Assembly: GCA_963827685.1 (NCBI GenBank)
Contig: CAWHBU010000006.1
Coordinates: 320,001 to 384,000 of the forward strand
From: an uncultured delta proteobacterium
GTDB lineage: Bacteria > Desulfobacterota > BSN033 > UBA1163
Direction: 5' to 3'
DNA: 64,000 nucleotides
In this document: in pieces, positions 3,215 to 3,287 of the stretch
How the letters are laid out: each line of letters begins with the position of its first letter
Position numbering within the stretch: position 1 is the first letter of the stretch
Notes under the pieces: model-generated
The model's database searches: none
The model's input: the letters and a program-made list of their open reading frames with translations, nothing else
What the model was told of the DNA's origin: nothing
Translations under genes and position numbers: made by a program

Positions 3215-3287
3215 TGCCCCCGCCGAGGCTCGAACTCGGTATTTGCCACTTAGCAGGTGGCCGTGATGTCCAATTCACTACGGGGGC
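3215..3287 (-). tRNA. Atypical tRNA, anticodon GCU (Ser) with short variable loop and Arg-like identity
   Basis: GCCCCCG TA GTGA ATTGGACA TCAC G GCCAC CTGCTAA GTGGC AAATA CCGAG TTCGAGC CTCGG CGGGGGC A; all four stems fully Watson-Crick; no encoded CCA; T-tract follows. Confidence 0.85.

Follow-up and report, generated by a model that had tools for sequence, protein, structure and literature searches.

Can a tRNA whose body and anticodon belong to different amino acids, and which travels on a transposon, be meant for the ribosome, and what would it do there? This question is raised by a 73-nt tRNA gene at positions 3215-3287 on the minus strand of a 64,000-nucleotide stretch of DNA from an uncultured delta proteobacterium of sediment (the window; contig C6:320001-384000 of a 5.2 Mb genome in 14 contigs, 94.5% complete with 8% contamination). 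An earlier reading of the letters of the window, referred to here as the original prediction, described the gene as a mobile tRNA with the Ser anticodon GCU on an Arg-type body, either inserting Arg at the Ser codons AGC and AGU (together AGY) or acting as a decoy. The gene was analysed in its own genome and in the relatives of the transposon that carries it. The comparison points to a selected tRNA, for which we put forward tentatively, and short of calling it probable, the role of an arginylated tRNA causing low-level or conditional Ser(AGY)-to-Arg missense incorporation.

ARAGORN reported the gene as tRNA-Ser(gct) at 3214-3288 (-), and the Rfam model RF00005, applied with lax filters to 301 bases, matched 3215-3287 (-) over model positions 1-71 of 71 with 57.5 bits (gathering cut-off 29, E 4.1e-12). 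A covariance model of the family described below, R1, gave 82.7 bits. The cloverleaf is also the minimum free energy fold of the RNA, at -32.7 kcal/mol (z -3.22, equalled by 0/200 shuffles). All stems are Watson-Crick paired (acceptor GCCCCCG/CGGGGGC, D GUGA/UCAC, anticodon GCCAC/GUGGC, T CCGAG/CUCGG), and the cloverleaf is of the 7/5 type. Its tertiary-contact nucleotides are U8, A14, G18G19, A21, U54U55C56, A58 and C61, the columns of which are invariant among 16 homologues. Also present are A20, G26, U33, the anticodon GCU, A37A38, a 5-nt variable loop (AAAUA), the T loop UUCGAGC, A48 paired with U15, and the discriminator A73. Location and cloverleaf were thus as originally predicted, down to the anticodon, the short variable loop, A20 and A73. 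CCA is not encoded, a T7 run standing in its place; most tRNAs of the host encode CCA. This run, at 3207-3214 (-), is the likely 3' end of the tRNA transcript (GCCTCGGCGGGGGC followed by ATTTTTTTAT, listed as terminator-like by a consensus scan), and T-rich tails directly follow the acceptor stem in many homologues. Contigs from two Logan runs (3168-3364 and 3186-3336) span the whole gene with 0 differences, which makes a read or assembly error unlikely, both runs being from one study and the source sample possibly among them.

In bacteria, Arg identity is given by A or G73, A20, C35 and U or G36, whereas Ser identity relies on the long variable arm, according to a recent review (Giege & Eriani 2023, PMC9976931); the Arg acceptor rule of Shulgina & Eddy consists of A20 plus A or G73. 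The arguments about arginyl- and seryl-tRNA synthetase (ArgRS and SerRS) in the original prediction agree with these rule sets. The window tRNA fits all four Arg positions (A20, C35, U36, A73). It departs from tRNA-Ser in having no long arm, A73 rather than G73, and C2:G71 against the G1-C72/G2-C71 of tRNA-Ser. Its anticodon, GCU, nevertheless lies outside those of the Arg codon boxes (NCG or YCU). An isotype comparison had been suggested as a check, and as a stand-in for it R1 was scored without filters against the 48 other tRNAs of the host. Arg(UCU), Arg(CCU), Arg(UCG) and Arg(ACG) obtained 75.3, 72.3, 69.6 and 66.1 bits, while the four Ser tRNAs came last, with 29.2 (CGA), 22.5 (UGA), 22.2 (GGA) and 14.8 bits (GCU), so that Arg stood above Ser. 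The probable assignment of the window tRNA to Arg rests on its identity positions together with its family membership. The most economical history would be that of a tRNA-Arg(YCU) in which position 34 turned to a purine and was held so.

The 49 tRNAs that ARAGORN finds in the host include a canonical 93-nt long-arm tRNA-Ser(GCU), among Ser tRNAs of 88-93 nt, and five tRNA-Arg (CCU, UCU, ACG, CCG, UCG), and the gene at 3215-3287 is therefore supernumerary. It has no close match among them, the best agreeing at 51/75 positions; its anticodon loop, CUGCUAA, is the same as that of the host tRNA-Ser(GCU). A search of the genome for a second or partial copy gave nothing beyond chance matches of 12-17 nt, by which an integration-site remnant was rejected as an explanation. 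At the syntenic site of a genome of the same genus (G002), there are about 91 bp between the flanking core genes, which encode a PpiD-like chaperone and a sigma-54 two-component pair; here 6,165 bp separate them. BLAST returned sequence relatives of the tRNA in 0/40 related genomes, and no match to it was found among phages and plasmids. Exact patterns of the D arm and anticodon arm, with the anticodon left open, gave 0 matches in viral contigs, and the anticodon-arm pattern gave 0 in the collection of genome contigs. Relatives of the tRNA were reached only by way of the transposase that accompanies it.

This transposase is part of a transposon of 4,969 bp, which begins 97 bases ahead of the window, ends at window position 4871 and is bracketed by 22-nt inverted repeats (95% complementary). 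The right repeat lies at 4850-4871 and the left one 76-97 bases before the window start (C6:319903-319924). Both are flanked by the 8-bp direct repeat CAAATCAT, one copy at 4872-4879 and the other outside the window, directly before the left repeat. The transposase gene (277 aa, 920-1753 (-)) encodes a probable IS1-family DDE enzyme. Its product scores 27.6 bits against Pfam DDE_Tnp_IS1 (cut-off 24.1), yet no single stretch passes, and 57.9 bits against the NCBIfam IS1 model, under its cut-off of 100; its homologues carry the name 'IS1 family transposase' at NCBI and JGI. Elements of the IS1 family, as defined in ISfinder, have ends of the form GGnnnTG and duplicate 8-9 bp of target. The present element resembles them in its marginal DDE_Tnp_IS1 match, the names of its homologues, its ends (GGTAGTG...) and its 8-bp duplication. 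Read along the transposase strand, it consists of a repeat, an 82-aa open reading frame (ORF), three cargo genes on the opposite strand, the tRNA, the transposase, a SocA/Panacea gene, a 98-aa ORF and the other repeat, which places the tRNA just upstream of the transposase. The transposon around the tRNA, which had been proposed from the letters, is accordingly borne out by its inverted repeats and target duplication.

Relatives of the transposase were then collected from two sources. Among genome contigs, 491 of 571 candidate stretches encode one, and the best 80 loci were kept (62-88% identity); among metagenome contigs 544 of 599 do so, of which 80 were likewise kept. All 8,000 scored candidate proteins had E <= 1e-20. 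The metagenome-assembled genomes (MAGs) that hold the genome loci are labelled Thermodesulfobacteriota, Aminicenantes, Acidobacteriota, Zixibacteria, Ignavibacteria, Chloroflexota, Planctomycetota, Nitrospirota, Patescibacteria and others. The terminal repeat GGTAGTGGGTCAGTTT is kept across related elements. Both ends could be placed in 62 elements of 2.0-5.3 kb, in all of which a small ORF at the left end and the transposase enclose 1-2.5 kb of variable cargo, and a perfect 8-bp duplication was present in 57 of 59 testable cases. The family is thus an active one that always carries cargo at this place. A tie between target-site sequence and anticodon was considered and rejected, the duplications being unrelated sequences.

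Within 400 nt upstream of the transposase, a tRNA on the same strand was found at 20/80 genome loci and 28/80 metagenome loci (48/160 in all), 13 metagenome loci having no more than 400 nt of upstream sequence at hand. The distance from tRNA to transposase is 73-321 nt. The 53 upstream tRNAs comprise 15 with anticodon GCU and 9 with ACU, all of 73-77 nt bar one of 92 nt, and 13 with UAU, all of 87-95 nt with a long arm; the rest carry UAG (5), UGC (3), CGU (3), CAA (2), UCC, CCG and UUA (1 each). 'Ser' anticodons therefore sit on short bodies in this family, and 'Ile' anticodons on Ser-like bodies with a long arm. An acceptor stem of 8 bp is frequent in the folds of the long-arm class. Both classes occur in tandem at loci L008 and L095, in L008 with the long-arm UAU tRNA first and a GCU tRNA right behind it. 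In a quick tree of 81 transposases the tRNA classes are interleaved (10 changes for 4 groups), and GCU and ACU are exchanged between the near-identical transposases of L008 and L009. Since relatives of the same transposon in many phyla bear similarly mismatched tRNAs, the mismatch looks selected and not accidental.

An alignment of 16 short tRNAs (A1, made with MAFFT, from which R1 was built) allowed this selection to be examined directly. In the cloverleaf of A1, 94.3% of the stem cells are paired and 19 of 21 pairs have changed on both sides. These values were reached by 0/500 shuffles, and only 33.5-49% of cells were paired when the partners were slid by 1-3 columns. G-U pairs outnumber A-C mismatches by 10 to 2, identifying the minus (tRNA) strand as the structured one. 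The Levitt pair 15:48 covaries as well, being mostly A:U, G:C in L008b and U:A in the window; the U15:A48 pair that had been called unusual but complementary is explained by this covariation. Mean identity among the short tRNAs is 66%, not above the 70% (nucleotide) of the adjacent transposase genes, and between the window and L005 the tRNAs are 61% identical and the transposase genes 81%. Stems thus change freely while fold and loops do not.

The loop positions were counted in 23 distinct short homologues from both collections, chosen by a 7-nt anticodon loop with RCU, by which C35 and U36 are given by construction. Position 34 is G in 15, A in 8 and a pyrimidine in none; position 33 is U in 19 and C in 4; positions 37-38 are AA in 22. 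Position 20 is A in 22 (C in L026; two GGG D loops were read by eye), and position 73 is A in 20, G in 2 and U in 1. The loop YYRCUAA is accordingly conserved in the family. Neither CCU nor UCU, the anticodons to be expected in the homologues had the window copy suffered a private mutation or read error, occurs among them, GCU being present in 15 and ACU in 8. Since position 34 is a purine in 23/23, these tRNAs cannot supply the decoding of AGA and AGG (AGR), and match the Ser codons AGC and AGU instead. An Arg-charged tRNA that reads AGY would require such a strict purine 34 together with C35-U36-A37-A38. Judged by this comparison, the tRNA is genuine and is under selection for the L-shaped tRNA fold, and an Arg body with a Ser anticodon, mobile and selected, as first proposed, is backed by the comparative evidence.

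The signals around the gene suggest how its output could be controlled. A candidate sense promoter lies upstream at 3348-3376 (-) (TTGACA-17-TATTCT, 10/12 by consensus scan). Aimed antisense at the tRNA from its downstream side is a consensus promoter at 1841-1869 (+) (TTGACA-17-TATAAT, 12/12, with TG before the -10), and a terminator-like hairpin followed by UUUAUUUUU stands at 3303-3340 (+), in position to end the antisense transcript (RNAfold -16.4 kcal/mol; z -5.25 for 3206-3345 (+)). Related elements likewise have the TGTCAA motif on the downstream side of their tRNA. Under one rule applied to 22 family tRNA loci, upstream terminators were antisense-oriented in 7/22 and sense-oriented in 0/22, and promoters were found antisense downstream in 9/22 and sense upstream in 3/22. 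The transposase has its own promoter at 1760-1789 (-) (TTGACA-18-TATAAT, with the palindrome GCTTGAGCGGTCAAG in the spacer), kept across the family (L005-L047), and two divergent promoters thus lie between tRNA and transposase. About 8 nt separate the end of the -10 of the conserved one from the ATG, and the transposase mRNA may thus be leaderless and under operator control. The antisense signals would agree with convergent antisense transcription that keeps the output of the tRNA low, as would be expected if its product is harmful. For a type I-like toxin-antitoxin pair, in which an overlapping antisense RNA would neutralise a toxic sense product, the indications are these promoter- and terminator-like signals.

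In the mechanism that we propose, transcription on the minus strand would start at the gene's own promoter-like site (3376-3348) in the window copy, while in most relatives the tRNA would form the tail of a cargo operon transcript. The precursor would be cut by RNase P, its T-run trimmed and CCA added, and the product would be charged with Arg by the ArgRS of the host. It would then compete with the host tRNA-Ser(GCU) on the ribosome, and Arg would be inserted at AGY codons. Such a missense tRNA would be a translational poison or stress module serving the transposon, by addiction or conditional toxicity, and would take no part in normal decoding. Its output would probably be restrained by the convergent antisense unit, formed by the consensus promoter downstream and the terminator just upstream.

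Several observations weigh against this role. The transposases of tRNA-bearing elements retain AGY at invariant Ser positions (13/13 at column 181, 11/13 at column 205), from which it follows that efficient Ser-to-Arg reading would harm the element itself, and AGY avoidance is absent in them (22.3 vs 20.4 per 1000 codons). A study of irregular tRNAs reports that, after conversion of the anticodon to CUA, amber suppression in E. coli was obtained with 0/6 transposon- or toxin-antitoxin-associated allo-tRNA-UAU, and that irregular tRNAs chargeable by histidyl-tRNA synthetase were not used in translation there (PMC5389517). At position 33, 4/23 homologues have C instead of U, an objection softened by tRNAProX of Streptomyces, which lacks U33 and still mistranslates in E. 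coli (PMC11415595, PMC10404621). The Arg assignment has its own weak points. In the scoring with R1, Thr(UGU) took third place with 71.9 bits, and the ranking is aided by the C35-U36-A37-A38 loop common to AGR-reading Arg and Thr tRNAs. By plain identity the window tRNA is nearest to a host tRNA-Leu (the 51/75 mentioned above; Arg 48), and over the 16 homologues this noisy test gave Arg as best in 7/16, Leu in 5, Thr in 3 and Ile in 1. No same-strand tRNA lies within 400 nt upstream at 112/160 related loci, and it is thus dispensable for transposition. Promoters and terminators were called as consensus matches only, and among public runs the tRNA locus was found in 4 DNA runs of one study and in no RNA run.

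Part of this evidence would be accommodated by an RNA with the shape of a tRNA which the ribosome does not use, but which is a decoy, sponge or regulator of a tRNA-recognising protein, an alternative that we regard as a serious one while doubting it. The partner could be ArgRS, a modification enzyme, or an anticodon-loop nuclease or toxin aimed at loops of the tRNA-Ser(GCU)/tRNA-Arg type, and the tRNA might be charged yet not delivered for decoding. Fold and YYRCUAA loop are kept while stems change freely, the loop of the window copy equals that of the host tRNA-Ser(GCU), and toxin-antitoxin and defence-like genes abound in the cargo of the family. The C33 copies, the lack of AGY avoidance in the element's own genes, and the charged-but-unused or inactive state of related irregular tRNAs in E. 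coli (PMC5389517) would also agree with a decoy. No partner protein consistently co-occurs, however; the adjoining cargo varies and mostly has no known family. A decoy for ArgRS needs no purine at position 34, where a pyrimidine is found in 0/23, and a decoy able to enter the ribosome would mistranslate regardless. The strict purine 34 with its fixed C35-U36-A37-A38 is hard to explain by an ArgRS decoy, and equally so by a processing signal. The latter would be one role of a cis-acting element to which the anticodon is irrelevant, and which would be at once an RNase P/Z site, a 3' stabiliser and terminator of the upstream cargo transcript, and an insulator before the transposase promoter. This is improbable, although the fixed place 73-321 nt upstream of the transposase, the same-strand ORF that ends just upstream of the tRNA in most elements, and the T-rich tail directly past the acceptor stem in many copies would suit it. 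It leaves the strict conservation of R34-C35-U36-A37-A38, A20 and A73 unexplained, the upstream cargo of the window is on the other strand, and the 112 tRNA-less loci count against it too.

The remaining alternatives fare worse. The real product could be an antisense RNA of about 130 nt, read on the plus strand, with its start at the 1841-1869 promoter and its end at the 3303-3340 terminator, and the 'tRNA' only its complement. The 12/12 promoter and the plus-strand terminator are in its favour, as is the greater frequency of antisense than of sense signals around the family tRNAs. We nevertheless consider it distinctly improbable, because the conserved tRNA loop features (G18G19, UUCGA/UUCAA, U8, A14, A21) are all on the minus strand, which the 10 to 2 excess of G-U over A-C favours too, and because an inserted insertion sequence (IS) has cut the promoter off in this genome. 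A decaying hitch-hiker, that is, a former tRNA-Arg(CCU/UCU) copy whose anticodon mutated by chance and which now has no function, would be in keeping with a tRNA that is dispensable for transposition and single in its genome. It is very unlikely when stems at 66% mean identity remain 94% paired with compensatory changes, and when 23 distinct sequences, drawn from two collections, retain the loop and the identity positions. An ordinary serine tRNA reading AGY as Ser is suggested by the anticodon, from which ARAGORN's Ser label derives. The missing long arm, A73 in place of G73, the host's own 93-nt tRNA-Ser(GCU) and the bottom rank of the host Ser tRNAs against the family model make it exceedingly improbable. 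Barely credible, finally, is a private genetic code in which the tRNA reads AGY where the element's proteins need Arg. For the transposase this was rejected, as 81 aligned transposases have no AGY at columns with at least 70% Arg, and elements with long-arm tRNAs have no ATA at Ser columns. The Ser(AGY)-to-Arg missense tRNA is the reading that we prefer, though tentatively.

How does such a tRNA compare with known systems? Genes for tRNA-Arg(UCU/CCU) on prophages and islands are codon-supply cargo. They are likewise mobile and of Arg type, and the top R1 scores in the host go to Arg(UCU) and Arg(CCU); they differ in that the present family, with its purine 34 in 23/23, offers no AGR supply. 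Compared with IS1-family insertion sequences bearing passenger genes, the 62 complete elements of 2.0-5.3 kb stand apart in their variable cargo, in some cases with a tRNA, and the literature searched yielded no description of an IS1-family element with a tRNA as cargo. Closer are the irregular tRNAs and allo-tRNAs of Mukai et al. (Nucleic Acids Res 2017, PMC5389517; review PMC7609411). These share with the family a mismatch of body and anticodon, an origin in soil and sediment bacteria, and toxin-antitoxin and 'transposon-related protein' neighbours, the allo-tRNA-UAU overlapping the latter and adjoining the former. Tandem tRNA 'polycistrons' are common to those systems and to L008, and the long-arm UAU class of this transposon family, with its 8-bp acceptor, resembles the abundant allo-tRNA-UAU group (PMC5389517). 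The window tRNA itself differs from allo-tRNAs, having a 7/5 branch and a short loop where they have a 12-bp acceptor branch (8/4 or 9/3) and a long arm. With its Arg identity set it is not the U73 'E-loop' GCU species of Mukai et al. either, and its carrier, unlike theirs, is here a defined one, an IS1-family transposon that ends in inverted repeats and is flanked by 8-bp duplications (PMC5389517).

The tRNAProX/ProRSx pair of Streptomyces and Kitasatospora likewise combines a body of one identity with an anticodon of another; tRNAProX has A34, can lack U33, shows an unusual 15:48 pair, and mistranslates and is toxic in E. coli (PMC10404621, PMC11415595). It adjoins a dedicated synthetase isoform on the chromosome, whereas here the carrier is a transposon that holds no synthetase gene, and the error predicted here, unlike that of tRNAProX, is Ser to Arg. 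The present tRNA is thus of a known kind, that of mismatched irregular tRNAs near transposons and toxin-antitoxin genes and of dedicated mistranslating tRNAs. No paper on an Arg-type tRNA with GCU or ACU was found, though Figures S5-S7 of Mukai et al. may bear on the point and similar sequences may stand in S5 and S6. As far as the literature was searched, and supplementary figures aside, the Arg/AGY class, its IS1-family carrier, its breadth across phyla and its antisense layout are apparently not in print.

Natural tRNAs with mismatched body and anticodon are rare and have hitherto been treated as curiosities of single lineages; here one is conserved and under selection for its structure, as a passenger of an abundant transposon family found in MAGs labelled as many phyla. 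The allo-tRNA-UAU group of Mukai et al. gains a probable defined carrier (PMC5389517). If the tRNA is Arg-charged and used, a mobile element would impose Ser-to-Arg errors on any host it enters, which would bear on the origin of genetic-code deviations, on the retention of selfish elements and on hidden proteome error in environmental bacteria. A wider reading, which we hold to be unlikely as it stands, would have IS1-family transposons across at least 10 phyla carry a toolkit of mismatched tRNAs, each an antisense-checked mobile translational poison that would act through mistranslation, as a module of addiction or abortive infection made of RNA only. Its members would include Arg bodies reading AGY, Ser-like long-arm bodies reading AUA, CUA and UUG, and at least one UUA (ochre) tRNA. 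With one small transposon, one tRNA and one antisense promoter, the system is a tractable one.

Toxin-antitoxin-like genes are present in the cargo of the transposon, as had also been proposed from the letters. On the plus strand, the cargo at 3489-4553 comprises a Gp49/HigB-like toxin gene (3489-3782), an HTH antitoxin-like gene (3760-4239) and a DUF3467 gene (4236-4553), and on the minus strand that at 2-852 comprises a gene for a SocA/Panacea antitoxin-domain protein (295-852) followed by the 98-aa ORF (2-295). The Gp49/HigB-HTH-DUF3467 set also occurs in L017, L022 and L024, where no tRNA accompanies it. In sister elements the cargo includes dCTP-deaminase-like, ClpP-like SDH protease and SocA/Panacea genes (among them L083:3841-4812, L013:7061-7945 and L005:6846-7349), and across the family also Gp49/HigB-HTH, DUF3467, DUF5343 and HARE-HTH. 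The family thus seems to ferry small defence or toxin-antitoxin modules. Upstream and cargo proteins had no Pfam family in 13/20 cases of one set and 6/10 of another. A constant protein partner of the tRNA was looked for and rejected, the neighbouring cargo differing from element to element. Inside the right repeat lies the gene for the 82-aa basic protein (4558-4806 (-)), which has no Pfam family and has relatives in the same place in related elements. Its ORF cluster has a member in 62/62 elements, being built by single linkage and hence also including unrelated larger ORFs.

The IS that parts the 1841-1869 promoter from the tRNA is of IS4/IS5 type, 1.33 kb long (1869-3196 (-)), with a DUF4372 + DDE_Tnp_1 transposase at 1882-3093 and 21-nt inverted repeats. 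It sits nine bases past the T-run of the tRNA, between two copies of a 9-bp target duplication (1860-1868 and 3197-3205). Six further copies in the genome, on contigs C1, C2, C3 and C4, are 99.3-99.9% identical, from which recent activity follows. Its insertion is a later event, unrelated to the story of the tRNA beyond separating it from the transposase promoter region. A 408-aa ORF adjoining the tRNA (1934-3160) was rejected as a gene; it has no family match and looks like an out-of-frame artefact over the IS transposase gene.

Further tRNAs were noted in the transposon family. A short tRNA at L107:2256-2328, in the same place upstream of the transposase, has the anticodon UUA, which pairs with the UAA stop codon, and is a candidate ochre suppressor. 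Loci L027, L031, L039 and L040 hold a second tRNA-like sequence 60-150 nt upstream of the listed tRNA (T-arm GGTTCGATTCC, 3' end ...CTCCA), which was missed by ARAGORN at default settings and resembles the tandem irregular-tRNA 'polycistrons'. The family model found no further short members among the 80 genome loci beyond those of ARAGORN, and the extra calls of ARAGORN at 85% thresholds were mostly noise. At L035:4341-11998 a 2,548-bp element is present in three copies head-to-tail, with 8 bp between each, and L037 and L038 have an identical transposase in MAGs labelled Methanocellaceae archaeon and Dehalococcoidia, which reflects either a very recent transfer or a binning error.

In the genome of the window itself, a second, diverged relative of the transposase (52.6% identity) lies at C3:1120791-1121597, with no tRNA called near it, and a lone matching end motif of the transposon at C4:874621. 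ORFs on the same strand stand at both ends of the transposon, one crossing the right repeat (4854-5042 (-)) and one beginning 6 bp from the left repeat (C6:319556-319897 (-)), and the insertion may have split a small gene of a segment specific to this genome (G000). In gathering mode, the Rfam scan of the whole 64 kb did not list the 57.5-bit tRNA at 3215-3287, which is a filter miss and not a low score; whole-window scans of this kind can thus drop real tRNAs. Elsewhere in the window, Rfam reports a group II catalytic intron domain at 34002-34071 (+), with 44 bits against a gathering cut-off of 40.

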